A stretch of 64,000 nt of DNA, from the NCBI GenBank assembly GCA_041752475.1, contig JBGSWK010000042.1:15676-79675 (forward strand), read 5' to 3'. The notes beneath the pieces were generated by a model. That model did not search any database. It had not been told where the DNA came from and saw nothing but the letters and a program-made list of their open reading frames with translations. Below are positions 7,147 through 62,246 of the stretch, one piece after another (within the stretch, counting starts at the first letter, position 1; the number at the start of each line of letters is the position of its first letter). The stretch comes from Pyrinomonadaceae bacterium. GTDB taxonomy: Bacteria > Acidobacteriota > Blastocatellia > Pyrinomonadales > Pyrinomonadaceae. Both the position numbers and the translations under genes were made by a program.

Positions 7147-7190
7147 CCCCAAATAAATCCCAATTCCGAATTCCCGATTTGGGATTTGGG
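7147..7190. repeat. AAATCCC / GGGATTT units in both orientations
   Basis: ccccaaataaatcccaattccgaattcccgatttgggatttggg, 23 nt upstream of the transporter start. Confidence 0.5.
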
Positions 7191-7300
7191 ACAACCCATA
7201 ATTCAGATTGTAAATTCCTGATATTCCAGTTATCAGGTTGCGACCAAAAAACCTAAAGTCGCCAGGAACCTGCTTAACGGTGGTCCGGTGCCGTTTCTGA

Positions 7301-8811: not shown

Positions 8812-9069
8812 ATGTCGAACCTTGCGCAAATCATCGTAATCGTCCTTGTCCTTACCGCGCTGGGCTCGGGAACTCTTCTGTTCATTACACTTAAATACTA
8901 TTGGGGCGAACGCGGCACACCTCCGCCAACGGGCGAGGAACGGAAGCGCCTGCAGGAAGAAGAAGTTCGCCTGCGCGCAAAGCAGCTCGAATACAGCCAA
9001 CGGAACAAATGGGAAACGCGGAGCGATAATTTCTTTGATAACACGAAGGGATCGGCGAAGAAGAACTGA
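8812..9069 (+). CDS. Small membrane-anchored protein, unknown function
   Basis: ATG start, one N-terminal TM helix (IIVIVLVLTALGSGTLLFITL) and a charged Lys/Glu/Arg tail; no recognisable family. Confidence 0.35.
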   Translation: MSNLAQIIVIVLVLTALGSGTLLFITLKYYWGERGTPPPTGEERKRLQEEEVRLRAKQLEYSQRNKWETRSDNFFDNTKGSAKKN

Positions 9070-9273
9070 GCGCGTTTCAATAACCACGTTCACGCCCGGC
9101 CAACGAATTCAGACGACGATTTTCGCCGCCTCCAGACCCACACCCCGCGCCGATCATATCCCAAAATGAATGGGTTTCAATTCACTCCAAATTCGGCTTG
9201 CATATCGGCGCCACAAAACGGCGGACATTGAAACACGCCTTGCGCGTGCTCCGCACGCTAAGTCGACGGCTCG

Positions 9274-9336
9274 TTACTCACCGCTCACTGCTCACTGACC
9301 ACCGCTCACTGACCACCGCTCACCGACCACTGCTCA
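9274..9336. repeat. Heptamer array, 9 units; minus-strand sense reads GTGAGCN/GTGGTCN
   Basis: ttactca ccgctca ctgctca ctgacca ccgctca ctgacca ccgctca ccgacca ctgctca; the last unit holds the lpdA stop codon (tca 9334-9336 = TGA). Confidence 0.8.
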
Positions 9337-10743
9337 CATATGAATCGTCAGATCGTGCACCCCCTCGGCGGCTTCCATCATCGATTCCGAAACCGTCGGA
9401 TGCGCGTGGATCGTGTTCGCGATCGACTCGGCCGTCGCTTCGAGGCTCATCGCAACGCAGGCTTCGGCGAGAAGTTCCGTGGCGTGCGGGCCGATGATAT
9501 GAACGCCGAGCACCTCGTCGTATTTCTTCTCGGCGACGATCTTGATGAAGCCGTCGGTCTCGCCGAGGATACGCGCTTTGCCGCTCGCCGAGAACGGGAA
9601 TTTCCCGACCTTGACGTCGTAACCGGCCTCTTTCGCCTTGGCTTCTGTCAATCCGACGCTCGCGACTTCCGGATCGCAATACGTGCAGTTCGGCACGAGT
9701 CGCTGGTTAATCGGCTCGACCTTTTTGCCCGCAATTCGCTCGACGACCAGACAGCCTTCCTTTGACGCGAGGTGCGCCAGCCACGCGGTGTCGATGACGT
9801 CGCCGATCGCGTAAACGTTCGGCTCGTCGGTTTCGCAGTATTCGTTGACCTTGACCGTGCCGCGCGGATTGACCTTCACTTTCGTGTTCTCGAGTCCGAG
9901 CTTGTCGAGATACGGCATCCGGCCGATCGCGACGAGCAGCATTTCGGCCTCGAGTTCGACGTCTTTACCCTTCGAATCCTTGCCCGAGACCTTGACGCTC
10001 GACTTTGTCTTCGTCATTTTGTCCATCTTGACACCGGTCATACACTTGATGCCGCGCTTTTTGAACGCGCGCTCGAGTTCTTTCGAAACGTCGGCGTCTT
10101 CGAGCGGAACGATGCGGTCCAGAAGTTCAACGACCGTCGTGTCGCAGCCGAACCGCGAATAGACGCTGGCGAATTCGACGCCGACCGCGCCCGATCCGAG
10201 AACGACCATCGATTTCGGGACGTGATTGAGTTCGAGGATCTGATCGGAATTGACGACCTGTTTGCCGTCGACCTCAAATCCGGGAATCGGCCGGACGACC
10301 GAGCCGGTAGCGATGATGATGTTCTTGGCGTCGACCGTTTCCTTTTTGCCGTCGGCATACGCGACCTCGACCTTGCCTTTTCCGGCGATCTTGCCGAAAC
10401 CGTTGAAAACAGTGACCTTGTTCTTTTTCATCAAATACGTGACGCCGGCCGAATTTTTGGCGACGACGCCCGATTTGTATTCCTGGACCTTTTCAAAGTC
10501 GTAGCTCAAACCTTCGGTCTTAAGTCCGAAGTTCTCAAAATGCTGAGCTTTTTCGTAAAGATGTGCCGCGTTCAGAAGAGCTTTCGTCGGGATGCATCCG
10601 CGAAGTCCGCAGGTTCCGCCAAGCCGCGCGTCGGCCTCTTTTTCGATCAGCGCGACTTTAAGTCCCATCTGCGAGCCGCGCACCGCCGCCACATATCCGC
10701 CCGGTCCCGATCCGATAATTACAACGTCAAATTGTTCTGCCAT
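9334..10743 (-). CDS. lpdA: Dihydrolipoyl dehydrogenase (E3)
   Basis: VVIIGSGPGGY FAD motif, GGTCGLRGCIPTK redox-active disulfide, C-terminal HAHPT interface motif; start at ATG 10743 (MAEQFDVV). Confidence 0.9.
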   Translation of the reverse strand: MAEQFDVVIIGSGPGGYVAAVRGSQMGLKVALIEKEADARLGGTCGLRGCIPTKALLNAAHLYEKAQHFENFGLKTEGLSYDFEKVQEYKSGVVAKNSAGVTYLMKKNKVTVFNGFGKIAGKGKVEVAYADGKKETVDAKNIIIATGSVVRPIPGFEVDGKQVVNSDQILELNHVPKSMVVLGSGAVGVEFASVYSRFGCDTTVVELLDRIVPLEDADVSKELERAFKKRGIKCMTGVKMDKMTKTKSSVKVSGKDSKGKDVELEAEMLLVAIGRMPYLDKLGLENTKVKVNPRGTVKVNEYCETDEPNVYAIGDVIDTAWLAHLASKEGCLVVERIAGKKVEPINQRLVPNCTYCDPEVASVGLTEAKAKEAGYDVKVGKFPFSASGKARILGETDGFIKIVAEKKYDEVLGVHIIGPHATELLAEACVAMSLEATAESIANTIHAHPTVSESMMEAAEGVHDLTIHM

Positions 10744-10938
10744 ATGAGTCCTCGTTCCCAAAAGTATTAAAAGTGTAATTATAAAGACTTGAACGCAAAA
10801 GAAAAGCGGCGGCAAATTCCGGCGACGATGTTAACTTCAATGCGATGCAGTTCAAAGTGCCGATTCGCAAGCTCGCATCAGCAGCAGCGCCGGGAAATTT
10901 TGGCGCGGAGGGGCGTCAAACCTGACACCCGTTGATGT

Positions 10939-10944
10939 TATAAT
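10939..10944 (+). promoter_or_regulatory. Candidate -10 box (TATAAT), possibly giving a leaderless rhodanese mRNA
   Basis: Perfect TATAAT 8 nt upstream of ATG 10953; no convincing -35 at 17-nt spacing. Confidence 0.25.
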
Positions 10945-10952
10945 CCGGAACG

Positions 10953-11324
10953 ATGGATCACAGCGAGGAATTTCTGAAGATTACGGCGAACGCGAAAAGG
11001 CGCGTCCGCGAACTGACCGTCGACGAGACCCTGAAACGAATCGAAGACGGCGCGACATTGGTCGACGTGCGCGAAGACTGCGAATGGAATGCGGGCCGGG
11101 CCGCCGGCGCGGTTCACGTCGGACGCGGCATAATTGAACGCGACATCGTCGGGCTTTACCCCGAAAAGGACGCGGAGTTAATCCTCTATTGCGGCGGCGG
11201 CTACCGGTCGGCGCTCGCCGCCGACAGTTTGCAGCTTATGGGTTATACGAACGTATTTTCGATGATCGGCGGGTGGACCGCCTGGAACGAGAACGGTGCG
11301 CCGGTCGAATCGGAGGGATTATGA
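10953..11324 (+). CDS. Single-domain rhodanese sulfurtransferase
   Basis: Active-site loop CGGGYRS, about 120 aa. Confidence 0.8.
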   Translation: MDHSEEFLKITANAKRRVRELTVDETLKRIEDGATLVDVREDCEWNAGRAAGAVHVGRGIIERDIVGLYPEKDAELILYCGGGYRSALAADSLQLMGYTNVFSMIGGWTAWNENGAPVESEGL

Positions 11325-11719
11325 AATATTTCGAATTTTTGTTGATTATGGTTGTTTTCGGACTGGTGGTCGGATGCCAGAAAGAGGCGGTTGTCGACCA
11401 GCCTGCGGGTATCCGGCAGGTCCCCGTTGAAGCAGCCAAGGCTGAGATCGACGCGAAGAACGCGCAATTCATCGATGTCCGATCGCCGGAAGAGTTCGGC
11501 GCGGAACACGCCGAGAAAGCAGTTAATGTGCCGCTTGAAAAGGTCGAAACCGAACTTGTAAAACTCGACAAATCGCGTCCGATCTACGTCATATGCCAAA
11601 CCGGGCGACGTTCGCAACTGGCATCTGAAACGCTCGACAAGAACGGTTTCAAGGAAGTTTACAACGTCGAAGGCGGCACAAGCGCCTGGAAAAAGGCAGG
11701 CCTGCCGATTGAGAAGTGA
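11321..11719 (+). CDS. Rhodanese-domain lipoprotein
   Basis: ATGA overlap with the upstream gene; lipobox-like LVVGC after a signal peptide; active-site loop CQTGRRS. Confidence 0.75.
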   Translation: MKYFEFLLIMVVFGLVVGCQKEAVVDQPAGIRQVPVEAAKAEIDAKNAQFIDVRSPEEFGAEHAEKAVNVPLEKVETELVKLDKSRPIYVICQTGRRSQLASETLDKNGFKEVYNVEGGTSAWKKAGLPIEK

Positions 11720-12387
11720 TGGGTATCGAGGAAGCACGAGAAAGGACGAAGCAAATCCAGTCTCAATTTGCCGAACGTGGTGACGCGCTCGGCTGGTTCG
11801 AGGCGCTCTACAATGAAGCCGCCGGAGACAACGAACGCATTCCCTGGGCGGATCTCGAACCAAACAAGTTTTTCGTTGAGTTCGCGCGGAAAAACGAGCT
11901 TGCGGGTTCCGGTCAAAAGGCTTTGGTCGTCGGCTGCGGACTCGGAGACGACGCGCGGTTTCTCGACGAATTGGGATTCAAGGTGACGGCGTTCGACATC
12001 TCGCCGACGGCGATCGAATGGGCACGGCGGCTGCACGCGGACCGTGAGATCGAGTTCGAAACGGCGAACCTTTTCGAGCCTTTCCGCGGATGGATCGGCG
12101 CGTTCGACTTCGTCCTCGAGGTGTACACGATCCAGCCGTTGCCGCTGACGATGCGGCCGGACGTGATCGATCGGATCGCGTCGTTCGTCGCGCCGGGAGG
12201 CGAGCTCGTCGTCGTCACACGCGGCCGTGAGGACGACGAAGAACCGATCGAACTACCGTGGCCGCTCTCGCGCCACGACCTGTCGAGATTTGAAGCTAAC
12301 GGACTCAGTCAACGGTCGTTCGACGTAATGATGGGCGACGAAGATCCGCCGATCCCGAGATTCGTCATTTCTTACGGTAAGCCGTAA
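11716..12387 (+). CDS. SAM-dependent methyltransferase, thiopurine-S-methyltransferase-like
   Basis: VVGCGLGDDARFL motif I followed by AFDISP; start GTG 11716 or ATG 11719, overlapping the upstream stop. Confidence 0.7.
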   Translation: MMGIEEARERTKQIQSQFAERGDALGWFEALYNEAAGDNERIPWADLEPNKFFVEFARKNELAGSGQKALVVGCGLGDDARFLDELGFKVTAFDISPTAIEWARRLHADREIEFETANLFEPFRGWIGAFDFVLEVYTIQPLPLTMRPDVIDRIASFVAPGGELVVVTRGREDDEEPIELPWPLSRHDLSRFEANGLSQRSFDVMMGDEDPPIPRFVISYGKP

Positions 12388-12452
12388 GCAGTGAGCCATG
12401 AGCGGTGAGCGGTGGGCAGTAAGCCGTGAGCGGTGAGCAGTGAGCAGTCAGT
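12376..12452. repeat. Heptamer array, 11 units NGTRAGC (plus-strand sense)
   Basis: ggtaagc cgtaagc agtgagc catgagc ggtgagc ggtgggc agtaagc cgtgagc ggtgagc agtgagc agtcagt; the methyltransferase TAA stop (12385-12387) is inside unit 2. Confidence 0.85.
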
Positions 12453-12512
12453 ACCATCTGCCTTTGAGGCTGTGTCAAAACGCACGGTTGCCGTTTCGCT
12501 TTGTGTCTCAAT

Positions 12513-12638
12513 GTTGCCACTAGCTTCAGCTAGTGGACCGGCAACCGATAAAAACCCGGCTTTAGCCGAATCATGGCGCGGGTTCGGCTAAAGCCGGGAT
12601 CTTTTTCCCTTGGCCCACTAGCTGAAGCTAGTGGCAAC
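12513..12638. repeat. Nested palindrome with two CCACTAGC-TKMA-GCTAGTGG hairpins flanking a 16-bp stem
   Basis: gttgccactagcttcagctagtgg (12513-12536) and ccactagctgaagctagtggcaac (12615-12638) are reverse complements and each is itself a hairpin; they flank 12555-12598. Confidence 0.8.
12551..12606. terminator. Bidirectional intrinsic-terminator-like hairpin between convergent genes
   Basis: aaaa-cccggctttagccgaa / ttcggctaaagccggg-atcttttt: perfect 16-bp stem, 12-nt loop, A-tract before and T-tract after, so a U-tract follows on both strands. Confidence 0.5.
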
Positions 12639-12648
12639 ATCAATACAA

Positions 12649-12748
12649 AAGGCAAAGCGTCTGCACAGAAGTCAAAGCATCTGCACAGCAATCAAAGCAC
12701 CTGCACAAAAGGCAAAGCATCTGCATGGAAGTCAAAGCATCTGCTTAT
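12649..12748. repeat. 5 x 20-bp tandem repeat (AAGKCAAAGCRTCTGCACAG)
   Basis: aaggcaaagcgtctgcacag aagtcaaagcatctgcacag caatcaaagcacctgcacaa aaggcaaagcatctgcatgg aagtcaaagcatctgcttat. Confidence 0.8.
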
Positions 12749-12874
12749 GCGTCCTGACAAATCCTTCTTAGCGGACGGTTGAACACAGCAGTTCCCGGAG
12801 AGAGCCCAACCCAACGACTGACAGCATTGAACCATCCGCTACCGCAGATGGTACTGTCTGCGTACTGTCCACTG

Positions 12875-13119
12875 CTCACGGCTTACTGCTCACCGCTCAC
12901 GGCTTACTGCTCACTGCTCACGGCTCACGGCTTACTGCTCACCGCTTACTGCTCACCGCTTACTGCTCACGGCTTACTGCTCACTGCTCACTGCTCACTG
13001 CTCACCGCTCACCGCTCACCGCTCACTGCTCACGGCTTACTGCTCACTGCTCACTGCTCACTGCTCACGGCTTACCGCTCACTGCTCACCGCTTACTGCT
13101 CACCGCTTACCGCTCACTC
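12875..13119. repeat. Heptamer array, 35 units with no phase break (plus strand CTYACNG; minus-strand sense CNGTRAG)
   Basis: 245 nt = 35 x 7 counted unit by unit; the last unit (13113-13119) holds the TGA stop (tca 13114-13116) of the minus-strand gene; inverted relative to 12376-12452. Confidence 0.9.
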
Positions 13120-13608
13120 TACCGCCATTGCCCAGCCGTTGACGTAGTTGTTCCGGCCGATCACTTCCCGGCCGGAGTTTACGAGACAGTATCCGACCAC
13201 ATAATTTCCGGGCGGCGGCGATAAGGTGCCGCTCGCAGTATATTGCCTCTGGACGGCATCGACCTCGACATTGAGATGGTTATCGCCGATCATCGGATTG
13301 ACCGGGGCGGTCGGCGAGGCTTGATAGCAGACGGCGATCGCGGCGCGGGTCGTTGCGGATTTCGCCCCGAGCACCGCCGTTCCGGTTGCGACGATCTTCT
13401 GACCTTCGGCGACGGCGATCGTTCTGACCGGACCGAAAAACTGCCAGGTTGAGCCGGGAAAGACTTCGTAACTTCCTTCACCCGAAAAATCGACGACCGT
13501 CGCGGGGAGGGTCTTTGCCGTCGGGACGCCGTGATTCAGGGCTTTGTTGTTGGTAACAAACAAGAATGTACACGTCTGCAAAAACAGACACAGTAAGGTT
13601 ATTTTCAT
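13114..13608 (-). CDS. Secreted protein of unknown function (about 165 aa)
   Basis: ATG 13608 preceded by AAGGAG at 7 nt; signal-peptide-like MKITLLCLFLQTCTFLFV; beta-rich, no recognised motif. Confidence 0.5.
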   Translation of the reverse strand: MKITLLCLFLQTCTFLFVTNNKALNHGVPTAKTLPATVVDFSGEGSYEVFPGSTWQFFGPVRTIAVAEGQKIVATGTAVLGAKSATTRAAIAVCYQASPTAPVNPMIGDNHLNVEVDAVQRQYTASGTLSPPPGNYVVGYCLVNSGREVIGRNNYVNGWAMAVE

Positions 13609-13760
13609 TTGATTCTCCTTCAGATTTGAGTGTTTTCGGGGAGTGAGTCCCCGCCATACTTCGGGCGAAAAATTGAGCTCGGACGGCACTGGATGCCGTC
13701 GATAAATTCGACCGAATGGGTTAATTCTAACGAAAATCCTGGCAATTTCAAGTGCAGCTA

Positions 13761-13933
13761 GAATTCCGCGGGATTCCGAGGGGTTTCAGGCGATCCCGGA
13801 GATTCCAGAGATTCCAAAGATTTCAGGGGATTCGGGCGTTCCAGGAATTCCACGGAATTTCTCTAATTTCTAGAATTTCTGGAATCTGTGGAATTCCTGA
13901 AATCCGCAATCCAAAATCCAAAATCCAAAATCA
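13761..13933. repeat. Low-complexity GGAATC/GATTCC and AATCCAAA repeat tract starting at the hpt stop codon
   Basis: Minus-strand sense reads TGATTTTGGATTTTGGATTTTGGATTGCGGATTTCAGGAATTCC...; the plus strand further left carries gattccagagattccaaagatttcaggggattcggg. Confidence 0.7.
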
Positions 13934-14503
13934 GATGATCTCCGGGTTCTTGACGACCGCGATGAACGGCAGGTTACGGTAGCGGTTGGCGGCGTCCAGG
14001 CCGTAGCCGACGACGAATTTGTTCGGGATCTGAAACCCGCAGTATTCAATGATGAGTTCGGTCTTGATGCGCGGCTCGGGTTTGTCGAGGAGCGTCGCGA
14101 TCTTCAGCGAGTTCGCGCCGCGCGAATCGAGAATCTCCATCAGACGAAACAGCGTCAAGCCCGTATCAATGATGTCCTCGACGACGATCACGTCCTTGCC
14201 GCGAATCGGGTGCGTCAGATCCTTGAGAATCTCCACGTCGCCCGACGAGACGGTTTCGTCCTTGTAACTTGAAACCGCCATAAAGTCGATCTTGAGATCT
14301 AGATCGATCTCGCGCATCAGGTCCGACAAAAAGATCACCGAGCCCTTCAAAACTCCGACCAGGACCAGTTCACGGCCCGCGTAATCGGCAGTGATCCGGC
14401 GTCCGAGTTCGGCGACGCGTGACTTGATCTCGTCCGCCGAGTACATTACTTCGAGGTTCGGGTTGGTGAATTCGGTGAACTCCGCGACTGTTTGCGTTGA
14501 CAT
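13931..14503 (-). CDS. hpt: Hypoxanthine phosphoribosyltransferase
   Basis: VIVVEDIIDTGLTL PRPP-binding motif, about 190 aa, typical Hpt C-terminus YRNLP. Confidence 0.9.
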   Translation of the reverse strand: MSTQTVAEFTEFTNPNLEVMYSADEIKSRVAELGRRITADYAGRELVLVGVLKGSVIFLSDLMREIDLDLKIDFMAVSSYKDETVSSGDVEILKDLTHPIRGKDVIVVEDIIDTGLTLFRLMEILDSRGANSLKIATLLDKPEPRIKTELIIEYCGFQIPNKFVVGYGLDAANRYRNLPFIAVVKNPEII

Positions 14504-15772: not shown

Positions 15773-16240
15773 ATGAAAACAAAGGCAATTATCGCAATCA
15801 CCGCCGTATTCGCTCTCGCGATGGCGGTCTTTGCATTCAATCAAACCAATTCCCCGAAATTGGGCACGGCCGATTGCTGCATGAAAAGCGATTCGTGCCC
15901 GATGAAGGACAAGAATGCCGATTCGGATCGGATGTCGAAAGCCGACAACTGTCCGATGAAAGCTAAGATGTCTGATTCGGAACAAATGTCGATGCACGAC
16001 AATTGCCCGATGAAAGACAAAAAGTCCGATTCGGAAAAGCTGTCTGCCGACAACTGCCCGATGAAGGACAGGATGGCCGATTCGGAAAAGAAGTCTTGCG
16101 AGGACTGTCCGATGAAGGACAAGATGCAAAAAGACGACTGCCCGATGAAAGCCGATCGTGAGAATTCTTCAATGGACAACTGTCCGATGAAGAAGATGCG
16201 CGAGAAGCCGTCGACGGCGATAGCGCCCACGGCGGATTAG
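15773..16240 (+). CDS. Secreted Cys/Met/Asp/Lys-rich repeat protein (7 x CPMK), putative soft-metal binder
   Basis: Signal peptide MKTKAIIAITAVFALAMAVFA; repeats D(N/D/S)CPMK(D/A)K...DSE at about 11-17-aa spacing; GGAG RBS; the DNA repeat gacaactg(t/c)ccgatgaa recurs. Confidence 0.7.
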   Translation: MKTKAIIAITAVFALAMAVFAFNQTNSPKLGTADCCMKSDSCPMKDKNADSDRMSKADNCPMKAKMSDSEQMSMHDNCPMKDKKSDSEKLSADNCPMKDRMADSEKKSCEDCPMKDKMQKDDCPMKADRENSSMDNCPMKKMREKPSTAIAPTAD

Positions 16241-16512: not shown

Positions 16513-17100
16513 ACCCGAATTACGCAATGGCGGTTCATTTGGCAGATTGGCGAACGGCGTGCCAGTTTAATGCCTTTGCATCGGGCACGTTAAATAATCT
16601 TTTATTTGAGGGTTTATTCACCACATAGGCACAGAGAACACATAGATTTCCAAGAGATTCTATCCGGAATTACGCGTTAGCGGTCGATTCGGCGGATTGG
16701 CGAACGGCGTGAAGGAGAAACGCGGGCTAAATTAGATCCCTTTGCATCAGGCGGTTGAAATTGTGCTTCCGTTGAGTTTTTTCACCACATAGGCACAGAG
16801 AACACATAGATTTCCAAGAGAATTTATCCGGAATTGCGCAATGGCGGTCCATTCGGCAGATTGGCGAACGGCGTGAAGGAGAAACGCGGGCTAAATTAAA
16901 TCCCTTTGCGTCAGGCAGTTGAAATTGTGCTTCCGTTGAGTTTTTTCACCACATAGGATCAGAGAACACATAGATTTCCAAGAGATTCTATCCGGAATTG
17001 CGCAATGGCGGTCCATTCGGCGGATTGGCGAACGGCGTGCCGAAGAAACGCGGGCTAAGTTATATCCTTGTGCATCAGGTAATTGAAATTGTGTTTCTGG
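16513..17100. repeat. Tandem array of a 150-164-bp unit, about 3.7 copies
   Basis: Anchor ATTGGCGAACGGCGTG at 16546, 16696, 16860 and 17014; each unit also carries CCGGAATTRCGC..GGCGG and (3 copies) TTCACCACATAGGCACAGAGAACACATAGATTTCCAAGAG. Confidence 0.85.
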
Positions 17101-19762: not shown

Positions 19763-19864
19763 TTGGATTTTGGAATCGGGATTTGTGATTTGTGATTTCC
19801 GCTAGCCGATACAGAATTACCGGACTTAAATTCCGAAATCGCCAATCCCGAATCCCAAATACTC
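19763..19864. repeat. Intercistronic GGATTT/AAATCC element between two minus-strand genes
   Basis: Minus-strand sense: TAG-GAGTATTTGGGATTCGGGATTGGCGATTTCGGAATTT ... GGAAATCACAAATCACAAATCCCGATTCCAAAATCCAA-ATG; about 21 of 28 aligned arm positions are complementary. Confidence 0.7.
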
Positions 19865-25805: not shown

Positions 25806-25859
25806 GAAATCCAAAATCCCCAGCCCAAATCCAAAATCCAAAATCCCCAATCCAAAATC
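25806..25859. repeat. AAATCC(M)AAAATCC octamer-like tract
   Basis: gaaatccaaaatccccagcccaaatccaaaatccaaaatccccaatccaaaatc, bracketed by the inverted repeat ccggcgtca / tgacgccgg. Confidence 0.7.
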
Positions 25860-25979
25860 AAACTGACGCCGGCGTTTTCGGATTCCATTGCTCAGGATTT
25901 TACACCACAAGCGAACGGCGCGAAAAAGCGTCGGCGTCAGATTGTTCTAAGCTAGTATTGACCGTTGATCAATCTTAAA

Positions 25980-48907: not shown

Positions 48908-49103
48908 ACCACGGTCTGAAGACCGTGGCAATTGATAAGAATGTTTGAAGATTCTGGCAATTGACAAGAGTGTCTGAAGATTGTGGCAGTTAAGGAGACT
49001 GTCTGGAGATTATGGCGATTGAGAAGAATGTCTGAAGACCGTGGCAATTGACAAGAATGTCTGAAGAACGTGGCAAATGAGAAAAATGTCTGAAGACCGG
49101 CGC
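48908..49103. repeat. 29-bp tandem repeat, 6.5 contiguous copies (GTCTGAAGACCGTGGCAATTGACAAGAAT)
   Basis: Units at 48914, 48943, 48972, 49001, 49030, 49059 and 49088 (partial); the first unit is extended to the hairpin ccacggtc-tgaa-gaccgtgg (48908-48927). Confidence 0.9.
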
Positions 49104-60034: not shown

Positions 60035-60040
60035 AGTCAG

Positions 60041-60103
60041 TAGATGGTAGACCGTAGACCGTAGACGGTAGACAGTAGACGGTTGACGGTAGACGGTAGG
60101 CCG
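60041..60103. repeat. Heptamer array, 9 units TAGACNG
   Basis: tagatgg tagaccg tagaccg tagacgg tagacag tagacgg ttgacgg tagacgg taggccg, starting 7 nt upstream of the xth start. Confidence 0.85.
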
Positions 60104-60120
60104 CAGGCAAGAGATGTCGC

Positions 60121-60169
60121 CACTGTCCACTGTCCACTGTCCATTGTCCATTGTCCATTGTCCATTACA
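60121..60169. repeat. Heptamer array, 7 units CAYTGTC
   Basis: cactgtc x3, cattgtc x3, cattaca; ends 12 nt from the methyltransferase stop, which lies in a single GTGAGCG unit. Confidence 0.85.
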
Positions 60170-60181
60170 CCTGCCCCGCGC

Positions 60182-61108
60182 TCACTTTCCCCAATTTCGT
60201 TCATAAAATACACCGTCATCGAACCCTTGGATCGACGGTTCGCGGGCGGCGATATCCAAACGCTTCTGTGCCAGCAGGCAATAGCGCTCGTCGCTTTCGA
60301 TGACGCAAAAACTCCGTCCGAGTTTCAGCGCCGCAACGGCCGTCGTCCCGCTCCCGGCGAACGGATCAAGTATCAGATCGCCCGGATTCGTCGATGCCAG
60401 GATCACCTTTGCCAAGAGCTTTTCCGGCTTCTGAGTCGGGTGGTCGGTGTTCTCTGGCATCGACCAGAAAGGAACCGTCAGATCGGTCCAGAGATTCGAC
60501 GCATGCGTCAGCCGGAAATTTCCTTCGGCCGACCGTTCCCAATCCTTCGGCGCGCCGTTCTCGGTGTACGGCGCGATCACGCGTCGCTTCACCTTTACCG
60601 CCTCGATGTTGAACACGAAGTCGTCAGAGGCGGTAAAAAACCAAATATCCTCAGACGAGTTCTTCCAGTTGCGTTTCGCGCCCCGCCCCTTCTCGCGCTC
60701 CCAAGTGATGCGGTTGCGAAGATTGAAGTATTTCATCCCGACGCGCTGGATCGCGGCCGATGAACGCCAATCTCCGCAGACATAAATCGACGCCGTCGGT
60801 TTGAGCAACGGAACGCAGAGTTTCAGCCACGAATCGAGCCAGTCTTCATACGCGTCGAGCGTTTTTTGGCGGAACGACGCCTGACCGAAAGTCTTTGTAA
60901 GATTGTACGGCGGGTCGGCAAACAGCAGATCGAACGTCGACACGGGAAGAGTTCCGAGTATCGAAAAGGCATCACCGCAAATCACCCTGTCGCGGAATTC
61001 ACGCGCATCCAACGCGATCCGTTGACGCAATTCCGCGGCCTCGGACGATCCGATCTCGATCGTCCGGTTTCTTGGGGCGCGGATCTTTTGCGGTTTCTGA
61101 GCGCTCAT
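60182..61108 (-). CDS. Beta-class DNA methyltransferase (N6-adenine or N4-cytosine), no cognate endonuclease nearby
   Basis: Motif IV FADPPYNL precedes motif I LDPFAGSGTTA (beta-class order); ATG 61108, 4 nt after the upstream stop. Confidence 0.85.
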   Translation of the reverse strand: MSAQKPQKIRAPRNRTIEIGSSEAAELRQRIALDAREFRDRVICGDAFSILGTLPVSTFDLLFADPPYNLTKTFGQASFRQKTLDAYEDWLDSWLKLCVPLLKPTASIYVCGDWRSSAAIQRVGMKYFNLRNRITWEREKGRGAKRNWKNSSEDIWFFTASDDFVFNIEAVKVKRRVIAPYTENGAPKDWERSAEGNFRLTHASNLWTDLTVPFWSMPENTDHPTQKPEKLLAKVILASTNPGDLILDPFAGSGTTAVAALKLGRSFCVIESDERYCLLAQKRLDIAAREPSIQGFDDGVFYERNWGK

Positions 61109-61112
61109 AAAC

Positions 61113-62246
61113 TCATTTCTCAAGGATCAGGCGCGCGAGCAGCAGAGCGCGTTTCGGGATGTCGTCGACGACGATGTACTCGTCCAGCGTGTGTGCTCCG
61201 TTGCCGAGGATTCCCAGGCCGTCGAGAAGCGGAACTCCGAGCGCCGCGACGAAATTCCCGTCCGAGGCGCCGCCGACCGTCGTTTCGCCAAGTTCGTAGC
61301 CAAACTTGAGAGCCGTTTTCCTCGCGCGTTCGTAGAGTTTCAACACGGCGCGGCTGCGTTCCATCGGCGGACGGTTGATCTCGCCGATGATCTCGAGCCT
61401 GACGCGAGGGTCGAACGGCTTGAGTTTCGCAATCGCCGTTTCGATCCGTTTCGCCTCTTTCATCGAAGAAAAACGGACATCGATCTCGCATTCCGAATCT
61501 GATGGGATGACGTTCGACGTCGTTCCTCCCGACACCGTACAGACATTCACGGTCGTGCCCTTTTCCGGATCGTTCAGCCCGTGGAGCTTTTCGATCTGCC
61601 GCGCGATCTCGAGGATCGCCGAAGCACCCTTTTCGGGCTCGAGTCCGGCGTGCGCCGGAATGCCATGGGCCTTGATCGTGAACATTCCGGTTCCTTTGCG
61701 TCCGGTCTTGACCCGACCGTCGGCGGAGGGTTCACAGACGAGCGCATAACCGGCAAGCGCGGCTTCGCGTTCGACGACCGCGCGTCCGCTGTGGCTTCCG
61801 ATCTCTTCGTCGCAACTGAGCAGGATCGTCAACGGTCGCGGCGGCGTCAGCCCGAGTTCCTTAAACGCCCACAGAACCTCAAGCATTAAGACGATGTTGG
61901 CCTTCATATCGAACGTTCCGCAGCCATAGAGTCTGCCTTTCTCGATCCGCGTCGGGTTCTTTTCTTTCGTCCCGCGCGGATGGACGGTATCGGTATGTCC
62001 GAGAAGCAGTGCCGGCTTTTCATCTCCGCCGAAGGCGCGGATCACGAGATGTTCGCCGAATCCTTCGACCGGCGTCCGTTCGATCCGGAAGTCGTTCGAT
62101 ATGCGCCGCGCCTCGTCTTCGATCCATCCGGCGACCATCCGGCTGCCGGCCTCGTCGCGCGACGGCGACTCGATCTCGACGAGCTGCTGGATGCGCCGCA
62201 CGATGCGTTCGAGGCGGCCCTCAAAAAACTCTTGTAATTGATCCAT
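61113..62246 (-). CDS. M20-family metallopeptidase/deacylase (ArgE/DapE/CPG2-like)
   Basis: LLLGHTDTVHP, CDEEIGS metal-ligand motifs, dimerisation-domain-sized insert. Confidence 0.8.
   Translation of the reverse strand: MDQLQEFFEGRLERIVRRIQQLVEIESPSRDEAGSRMVAGWIEDEARRISNDFRIERTPVEGFGEHLVIRAFGGDEKPALLLGHTDTVHPRGTKEKNPTRIEKGRLYGCGTFDMKANIVLMLEVLWAFKELGLTPPRPLTILLSCDEEIGSHSGRAVVEREAALAGYALVCEPSADGRVKTGRKGTGMFTIKAHGIPAHAGLEPEKGASAILEIARQIEKLHGLNDPEKGTTVNVCTVSGGTTSNVIPSDSECEIDVRFSSMKEAKRIETAIAKLKPFDPRVRLEIIGEINRPPMERSRAVLKLYERARKTALKFGYELGETTVGGASDGNFVAALGVPLLDGLGILGNGAHTLDEYIVVDDIPKRALLLARLILEK

Follow-up and report, generated by a model that had tools for sequence, protein, structure and literature searches.

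Between a methyltransferase gene and a convergent gene of Pyrinomonadaceae bacterium, the 64,000-nucleotide stretch of DNA analysed here (contig C42, positions 15676-79675; hereafter the window) carries two long arrays of the 7-nt unit GTRAGCN, which are most likely the arms of one heptamer-armed intergenic hairpin. We propose, with a probability of about 0.6, a blended reading in which such arrays have grown by slippage into the arms of RNA hairpins that serve as 3′-end or processing structures, belong to a known class of repeats, and contain stop codons incidentally. The parts of this reading differ in strength. That the arrays are this lineage's version of the known heptameric long simple sequence repeats (SSRs), with incidental stops, is very probable; a role for the paired modules in RNA, as 3′-end or processing stems, is more tentative, and we place it somewhat below even odds. 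The genome is a metagenome-assembled genome (MAG) of 4.89 Mb in 86 contigs, with 56% G+C, obtained from hot-spring and biofilm metagenomes. Among the named loci compared, its proteins had their best matches in MAGs of Acidobacteriota, Pyrinomonadaceae and Aridibacter, at up to 93% identity.

The hairpin and its flanking genes

The left arm, at 12376-12452, has its G-rich strand on the plus strand. It divides into 11 in-phase NGTRAGC units when cut into 7-mers, was also reported by TRF (Tandem Repeats Finder), and is fully spanned by independent unitigs. Eight of the 11 units contain an exact GTRAGC, and the other three (CATGAGC, GGTGGGC and AGTCAGT) are one- or two-base variants. The right arm, at 12875-13119 with its G-rich strand on the minus strand (7-mer cutting and TRF), comprises in the MAG assembly 35 in-phase GTRAGCN units, each reading GTGAGC or GTAAGC on the minus strand with A, G or C as the seventh base. 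These unit counts are the same as those of the first-pass annotation, and its placing of the two stop codons within the arrays was also correct. The plus-strand gene for an S-adenosylmethionine (SAM)-dependent methyltransferase (11716-12387; Pfam Methyltransf_25/11/23) has its TAA at 12385-12387 in unit 2 of the left arm, its last codons, GGT AAG CCG TAA, being the first two heptamer units. The minus-strand open reading frame (ORF) 13114-13689, coding for a hypothetical signal-peptide protein that gave no Pfam match, terminates in the right arm, whose first unit holds its TGA (13114-13116).

The symmetry is prolonged at the inner ends of the arms, as had been noticed earlier, by an inverted repeat with its left half at 12449-12460 (cagtaccatctg) and its right half at 12845-12856 (cagatggtactg), both of which pair in the folds. 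The idea of a long hairpin or cruciform was supported by folding: the segment 12370-13125 forms one nested hairpin on either strand, with free energies of -343 and -400 kcal/mol for the two strands and a z-score of -16. Its loop holds a nested 125-bp palindrome (12513-12640), a dispersed repeat of the REP/REPIN (repetitive extragenic palindrome/REP doublet forming hairpin) type to which we return below, and five copies of a 20-nt tandem repeat, ACAGAAGTCAAAGCATCTGC (12645-12744; TRF). A permissive Rfam scan of positions 9000-14000 placed no family over the heptamer arrays.

Support from independent assemblies

A long phase-perfect array might be produced by an assembler. Short-read unitigs from three metagenome runs provide an independent check. 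The left arm is wholly spanned (11900-12539, in two or three runs), with identical copy number in runs X1 and X2. The right arm is covered by unique unitigs at both ends only, 12614-12924 and 13084-13700, so that the count of 35 and the unbroken interior come from the MAG assembly, and a comparison of its copy number between samples is beyond unitig resolution. This unspanned interior (12925-13083) speaks for an artefact, as does the finding that 11 of the 172 contig ends of the genome (those of C4, C14, C33, C45, C46, C54, C60, C63, C76, C78 and C84) fall in heptamer arrays; the longest such arrays have probably been cut short in the MAG or failed to assemble. Against it, two or three runs yielded independent unitigs that reproduce the left arm and both ends of the right arm, arrays of up to 526 bp are also present in the 20-contig assembly of a congener, and comparable arrays occur in complete genomes from other phyla. 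We consider an artefact to be extremely improbable. The existence of the arrays is beyond doubt, and the copy number of the right arm is less so.

Heptamer arrays and their polarity across the genome

Tandem repeats of the whole genome were located with TRF, and genes were called by scoring ORFs for codon usage, the scorer having been trained on this same genome (3687 genes, 84% coverage). Each array was oriented by a data-independent rule, namely by the strand on which G exceeds C. Period 7 dominates, with 1114 TRF rows and 50 kb, the runner-up being period 9 with 16 kb. There are approximately 850 period-7 arrays, which account for about 1% of the genome bases and range in copy number from 3 to more than 70 units; about 120 paired modules, the window hairpin among them, are formed by such arrays. 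Nearly all are intergenic, 166 of 845 overlapping called genes. They represent 186 canonical units in dozens of unit families, among them the superfamily xGATTxx (GGATTTT, GGGATTT, CGGATTT and others), with some 450 arrays, and the superfamily GTRRNCN (GTGAGCN, GTAAGCN, GTGGTCN, GTGGACA, GTAGACG and others). A four-unit GTRAGCN pattern matched the genome 669 times, and the reversed pattern not once, a result well outside chance.

All families obey a strand-symmetric polarity in which the G-rich strand runs 5′ to 3′ away from the adjacent ORF. Where an array lies nearest to the 3′ end of a gene, the sense strand is the G-rich one by 356 to 89 (p = 7e-39), with median stop distances of 3 nt for the G-rich-sense arrays and 72 nt for the minority orientation. 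Where it lies nearest to a start, the sense strand is C-rich by 143 to 91. Since the polarity points away from each ORF, a pair reads G-arm and then C-arm on either strand, and this '+-' pattern was found in 118 spacers as opposed to six with '-+'. Single arrays keep the polarity without a partner, lying 3 nt from a stop or, roughly, 14 nt from a start. The arrays occupy 1.8% of the spacer bases between divergent genes, 5.8% between tandem genes and 5.3% between convergent genes. In the GATT families the stop codon is often the first, degenerate unit of the array (TGAttttGGATTTT, TAGattttGGATTTT).

The genome-wide scan that had been suggested for the GTRAGC arrays, merged here into a test set of 83, showed them to be orientation-locked and stop-adjacent. 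The 5′ side of the GTRAGC strand meets the 3′ end of a gene in 54 of the 83, and among these 54 the distance to the stop is at most 20 nt in 41, while 25 include the stop itself. One third of the arrays (27 of 83) face gene starts in antisense, as partner arms. In inverted pairs the GTGAGC arm comes first and the GCTCAC arm second, whatever the orientation of the flanking genes. Because of this fixed order, the sense strand behind a stop reads GTGAGC; a start codon often directly adjoins the second arm, which is then antisense to it. Replication-strand bias was ruled out as the cause of the orientation, since both orientations occur as fixed-order pairs inside single spacers.

The polarity is robust, yet none of the models tested explains it. 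It may have to do with the strand that reads into each ORF being free of G and of start codons, with the loading of Rho, or with the mode in which the elements originate. With Rho, the arrays would be insulators: a transcript entering an ORF from outside would first read a C-rich, G-poor, unstructured array, which would act as a Rho utilization (rut) site and halt antisense or read-through transcription. No other idea that we considered accounts for a strand-symmetric polarity that is independent of gene orientation, and G is scarce or absent in such C-rich strands as AAAATCC, AAATCCC and GCTCACN. The argument is purely inferential, however, and it meets two difficulties: C-rich arrays right before starts would also attenuate sense transcription, and the C-arm of a paired module is tied up in the stem. 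We regard Rho-loading insulators as a quite improbable explanation.

Stop codons within the arrays

The first reading of the window had tied the orientation lock to stop-bearing units and knew of no earlier case of stop-anchored, orientation-locked arrays; neither point was supported. Every period-7 family follows the polarity, and 220 of the 339 stop-adjacent arrays, that is, those within 30 nt of a stop (65%), have no stop triplet on either strand. Arrays of this kind have moreover been published for Xanthomonas, with the unit GGGAATC, and for Nostoc, with the unit GGGGAYT (PMC4692102). It remains true, as first observed, that the GTRAGC arrays carry stops in all three frames, GTRAGC containing TGA or TAA and 7 being coprime to 3. 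For this same reason any ORF that enters such an array ends within three units, so that both the anchoring of stops and the three-frame stops are by-products and not the function.

Two other loci of the window at which stops had been noted bear on this. A solitary array of nine GTGAGC/GTGGTC units at 9274-9336 (minus strand; TRF, ORFs and 7-mer cutting) begins in the stop of lpdA (9334-10815, minus strand), the TGA lying, as had been claimed, in its first unit; non-stop GTGGTC units are interspersed in the array behind this stop. At 60182-60184, the stop of the minus-strand methyltransferase ORF 60182-61123 does lie in a GTGAGCG word, but this is a single unit and not a fourth array, and those that follow behind it are of other families.

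The arrays might be kept as a fail-safe, in which TGA or TAA in every frame catches ribosomes that have read through or shifted frame. That 91% of the units in GTRAGC arrays carry a stop, that position 3 of the unit is nearly always G, A or T, all of which preserve the stop, and that 25 arrays contain the stop of the incoming gene would fit such a role. The stop content is, however, the same where no gene ends: 91.2% of units carry a stop in the GTRAGC arrays that face starts, compared with 90.7% behind stops. The G/A/T spectrum of position 3, suggestive as it is of selection for stop retention, is likewise the same in start-facing arrays, and we rejected such selection. The stop-free arrays, 65% of those that are stop-adjacent, obey the same rule of polarity. 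Where stop content and G-richness conflict, polarity tracks G-richness: units whose C-rich strand bears the stop nevertheless have G-rich sense strands (10:0), and for units with equal G and C the stop is on the antisense strand (12:1). The non-stop units of the lpdA array are a further point against it. The fail-safe idea is largely refuted, and we leave it a very small chance. The arrays also differ from the SSRs of phase variation (contingency loci), since they lie behind the stops of housekeeping genes (such as lpdA, the methyltransferase gene and rpsH), and with a 7-nt unit that has stops in every frame a change in copy number cannot turn a frame back on.

Pairing and folding of the arms

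Among 122 adjacent '+-' pairs, the two arms share a unit, with at most one mismatch, in 69; the expectation is 26, and the highest count that 2000 shuffles gave was 39. The 96 modules of up to 400 nt have a median minimum free energy (MFE) of -56.7 kcal/mol and a z-score of -7.6. An exact complementary 9-mer was located within 150 nt of 117 of 331 stop-adjacent arrays, whereas the controls gave 2-6. These results are consistent with the reading proposed above, in which slipped-strand mispairing would lengthen and shorten the arrays while the arms are kept matched. Once transcribed, the long stems would be 3′-end or processing structures, either terminator-like or substrates of RNase III as in the intervening sequences (IVSs) of rRNA, and they would bring the upstream stop beside the downstream start or convergent stop.

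Several observations weigh against this reading. Two thirds of the stop-adjacent arrays have no exact complementary partner within 150 nt, and the lpdA array does not fold significantly (z = -1.4). The arms of the window hairpin are very unequal, with 11 and 35 units. Canonical terminators, a hairpin plus a T-run, are not enriched after the arrays (16/326, and 14/326 on the control strand); the window module has the stem of an intrinsic terminator and, as its two arms both end within coding sequence, no T-run to supply the U-tract. Both arm orders would fold equally well, so that a hairpin leaves the polarity unexplained. Distances to starts are rough, since stops in our gene calls are exact and starts are those of the longest ORF. 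Finally, the sole match to the lpdA words in RNA sequencing (RNA-seq) data was one estuary metatranscriptome, at 6% and from another organism.

Two further candidates were rejected. The arrays as spacers before an L-shaped terminator would fit the lpdA site of several congeners, though this fails genome-wide in the absence of any enrichment of terminators. G-quadruplexes are inapplicable to GTRAGCN, which has no GG(G) run; within this genome the GGGATTT family alone could qualify.

Congeners and other phyla

Arrays of at least six GTRAGCN units were found in Gemmatimonadota, Halomonas, Verrucomicrobiota, Planctomycetota, Saprospiraceae, Streptomyces, Acidobacteriota and more, and across 118 loci from many phyla the pair order was '+-' in 13 and '-+' in none. 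Within the genus GTRAGCN is patchy, from 0 to 358 four-unit matches, and a second genus has short '+ then -' hairpins some 45 nt apart. In 400 kb of the 20-contig congener, where the 526-bp array is the longest, the G-rich sense strand prevails at 3′ ends by 27 to 12 with a median distance of 3 nt, and the pair order is 22:3.

Behind the stop of the methyltransferase gene, congeners have hairpins of GTGGATA, GGTCGGT, ATGGAAA/GTGGAAA or GGATTTC units, a plain small hairpin, or nothing, and the methyltransferase orthologues are of equal length with different terminal residues. The orthologue of ORF 13114-13689 in congener G008 has a plain small hairpin at the site. Behind the stop of lpdA there are five GTGAGCG or four GGATTTx units, each followed by a canonical terminator, and in further congeners 26 GTGCAAA units or two to four of GTGGTCA, the last copy of which forms the 5′ side of a hairpin with T5-7 behind it. 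To judge from these sequence comparisons, the architecture and the position immediately after the stop have been kept, but not the unit, nor even the stop codon.

As a side observation, the G008 lpdA stop is followed directly by some 26 GTGCAAA/GTGCAGA units, a complete replacement of the unit at 94% protein identity.

The fast turnover of unit families, the presence or absence of arrays at orthologous sites and their patchy spread among congeners are also what one would expect of functionless slippage DNA. Arrays would then expand where constraint is lowest, in the transcribed and untranslated strip behind stops, and both position and polarity would result from mutational bias together with purifying selection on ORFs and promoters. 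Copy numbers from 3 to more than 70 and the depletion of arrays between divergent genes, where promoters lie, are in keeping with this, and polymerase slippage has been put forward for heptamers by Mrazek (cited in PMC4692102). Neutrality should not, however, yield a strand-symmetric polarity of 118:6 or a median stop distance of 3 nt; nor does it account for arms that match beyond chance (69 of 122 pairs, against 26 expected) or for an identical architecture across phyla. We consider functionless slippage DNA unlikely, though it deserves to be kept in mind; slippage as the means by which functional hairpin arms grow is the reading that we prefer.

Relationship to known repeats

The closest parallel to these arrays is found in the heptamer SSRs of Rehm et al. 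(2015; PMC4692102), GGGAATC in Xanthomonas and GGGGAYT in Nostoc PCC 7120, which are strongly over-represented in non-coding DNA, include inverted pairs and have had no function found for them. They are G-rich on the coding strand within 50 bp past a stop, or on the non-coding strand just before an ORF; they lie nearer to the 5′-side ORF regardless of orientation, and are depleted between divergent ORFs (PMC4692102). The arrays described here agree with them in being an over-represented, mainly non-coding 7-nt unit (1114 rows; 166 of 845 arrays overlapping genes), in the placement of the G-rich strand at stops (356:89) and starts (143:91), and in their scarcity between divergent ORFs (1.8% of spacer bases, versus 5.8% and 5.3% between tandem and convergent ones). 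The published heptamers also have G-tracts able to form a G-quadruplex and a preference for four units (PMC4692102), and in these respects GTRAGCN, with no GG(G) and with 11 and 35 units in the window arms, is different. Unlike the genomes of that study, this one has dozens of families and not one, arrays of up to 35-75 units, and frequent long hairpins with matched arms; the link to PF05635 described below and an acidobacterial host are likewise not in that paper (PMC4692102). Our literature search found no paper on heptamer arrays in Acidobacteriota.

Short tandemly repeated repetitive (STRR) heptanucleotides were reportedly described in heterocystous cyanobacteria by Mazel and colleagues in 1990. 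They share with our arrays the tandem intergenic heptamers, the several families per genome and the capacity to form hairpins, and the unit GTGGTCA of this lineage resembles TTGGTCA, which we take to be an STRR unit. To our knowledge neither the polarity rule nor the adjacency to stops is part of the STRR description. The host is an acidobacterium and thus not a heterocystous cyanobacterium, belonging to Acidobacteriota and not Cyanobacteria, and its units are others. STRR hairpins between hupS and hupL have been discussed as transcript stabilisers or translational couplers (PMC2670836). TAACTGA direct repeats, known from marine Beggiatoaceae, Cyanobacteria and Bacteroidetes (MacGregor 2015, PMC4679880), resemble our arrays as intergenic tandem heptamers with two stop triplets, scattered over phyla and located beside ORF boundaries. 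They differ in having 2-6 copies, mostly a few nucleotides before starts, where they are read as sites for a translational regulator (PMC4679880), whereas the arrays here are much longer and lie mainly behind stops.

A resemblance also exists to REP elements, bacterial interspersed mosaic elements (BIMEs) and REPINs, which are extragenic, lie mostly behind genes and form inverted doublets that fold into hairpins. REP elements are thought to protect the 3′ ends of mRNAs. They are, however, single palindromic units tied to a gene for a REP-associated tyrosine transposase (RAYT) and not tandem 7-mers. The 125-bp palindrome in the loop of the window hairpin is a different matter. It occurs at 80 intergenic loci, 61 of which have no heptamer arrays nearby, and a Y1-transposase (RAYT-like) gene, C59:19866-20312, has copies on either side of it; the latter finding identifies it as an element of the REP/REPIN type that has lodged in the hairpin loop independently of the heptamers. 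No heptamer array lies beside any of the eight PF01797 (Y1-transposase) matches of the genome (0/8), and we accordingly rejected a RAYT/REP link for the heptamers and accept it for the palindrome alone. Several of the eight PF01797 matches have distinct flanking palindromes of their own.

PF05635 genes in heptamer stems

The genome has nine genes for PF05635 proteins (23S rRNA IVS protein, a four-helix bundle), all co-oriented with their neighbours and including C72:34161-34472, C85:1768-2085, C39:95393-95704, C70:27813-28127, C40:24679-24981 and C13:260967-261281. Five or six of the nine are bracketed by matched inverted heptamer arms, with a unit private to each copy; across the genome such bracketing is seen for 11 of 3687 genes. 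The other small genes with matched arms (rpsH, a cupin gene and others) are ordinary genes and not special cargo. The arms around PF05635 genes lie close against the neighbouring genes, at 0-16 nt from the upstream stop and 5-22 nt from the downstream start, in the manner of the gene-less modules. A survey of the family found complementary flanks at 27 of 30 PF05635 loci in 29 genomes; at 12 of the 30 there is period 7 on both sides, and the left arm is G-rich, with two exceptions. No paper linking PF05635 with heptamers was found in the literature.

A ribosomal instance of matched arms deserves mention in its own right: the gene for ribosomal protein S8 (C40:70860-71252) stands between matched arms of the GGATTTT type, and arrays thus also lie between the genes of the ribosomal-protein cluster.

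The IVS of Coxiella 23S rRNA has a 28-bp stem with the S23p ORF in its loop, and is excised by RNase III (PMC4990558). The modules here share with the 23S rRNA IVSs of Coxiella and Leptospira (PMC4990558) an inverted-repeat stem with a PF05635 ORF in the loop, the stems being heptamer arrays in this case. The window module folds, like such a cassette, into a long stem formed by terminal inverted repeats. It differs in standing between protein genes and not in rRNA and in having a REPIN-like palindrome and a 20-nt repeat in its loop, where none of the nine PF05635 matches lies.

Perhaps the heptamer hairpins are mobile or selfish IVS-like elements, gene-less kin of the PF05635 cassettes comparable to transposable elements of the miniature inverted-repeat kind (MITEs), that home to ORF boundaries. 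The PF05635 genes inside such hairpins (five or six of nine here, and the complementary flanks at 27 of 30 loci in the family), the shared abutment on stops (0-16 nt) and starts (5-22 nt), the occurrence of different elements with different stop codons at orthologous sites, and the existence of other cargo, such as the REPIN of the window, point in this direction. A transposase-like activity is, however, not known for PF05635. The arms differ for every copy and the paralogues are 25-53% identical, which gives no sign of recent transposition, and neither target-site duplications nor clean empty sites were found. Many arrays are solitary, and the IVS protein genes may simply exploit hairpins that were there before them. 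We therefore consider mobile elements of this kind a doubtful explanation.

By analogy one could go further and envisage a cross-phylum class of boundary elements, in which the base of the stem would join a stop to the next start or convergent stop and the loop would carry PF05635 or a REPIN as cargo. RNase III would cut the elements out of mRNAs or process them there, as happens to the IVSs of 23S rRNA, gene-less copies such as that of the window would be non-autonomous kin of the PF05635 cassettes, and the G-arm-first polarity would reflect the way in which the elements are made or work, for example by presenting a G-free strand into every ORF. This extension is speculative, and we think it unlikely to hold as a whole.

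Other arrays and repeats in the window

Behind the methyltransferase ORF 60182-61123, 15 nt past its stop, a G-rich arm of ACAATGG/ACAGTGG units on the sense strand occupies 60120-60166 (minus strand), and a partner arm at 60040-60099 reads GTAGACG on the plus strand and the C-rich CGTCTAC on the sense strand (both from TRF and sequence). The latter stops a few nucleotides short of the probable xth start, and the pairing of the two arms is weak (z = -2.2). Heptamer arrays are the dominant spacer filler in the window. Heptamer or 9-mer arrays of the GATT superfamily are present at 13763-13932, 370-477, 1912-1946, 7158-7191, 19780-19860 and 25807-25862, with units AAATCCA, GAATTGG, GATTTCG, TCCCAAT/GATTTGG and others. 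Other tandem repeats comprise a non-coding 164-nt unit in three copies with 91% matching at 16612-17097 (TRF), a 29-nt unit, GTCTGAAGACCGTGGCAATTGAGAAGAAT, in 6.4 copies at 48914-49099, and a possibly coding 54/105-nt repeat with 76-78% matching at 15896-16126 (ORF 15773-16240).

Conclusions

Knowledge of tandem heptamers goes back to 1990 for cyanobacteria and to 2015 for Xanthomonas, and no function has been found. The present genome is an extreme case, with about 1% of heptamer DNA, dozens of families, arrays that reach 35-75 units, a very clean polarity and placement within a few nucleotides of ORF boundaries. On the practical side, such arrays break short-read assemblies, supply C-terminal codons and stops to the adjoining genes, and confuse the annotation of gene ends and terminators in MAGs of Acidobacteriota. 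For the biology of these repeats the result is a narrowing of the choices: the stop content is not what is selected, and a structural or RNA-processing role, or an origin as selfish elements, are the explanations that remain.

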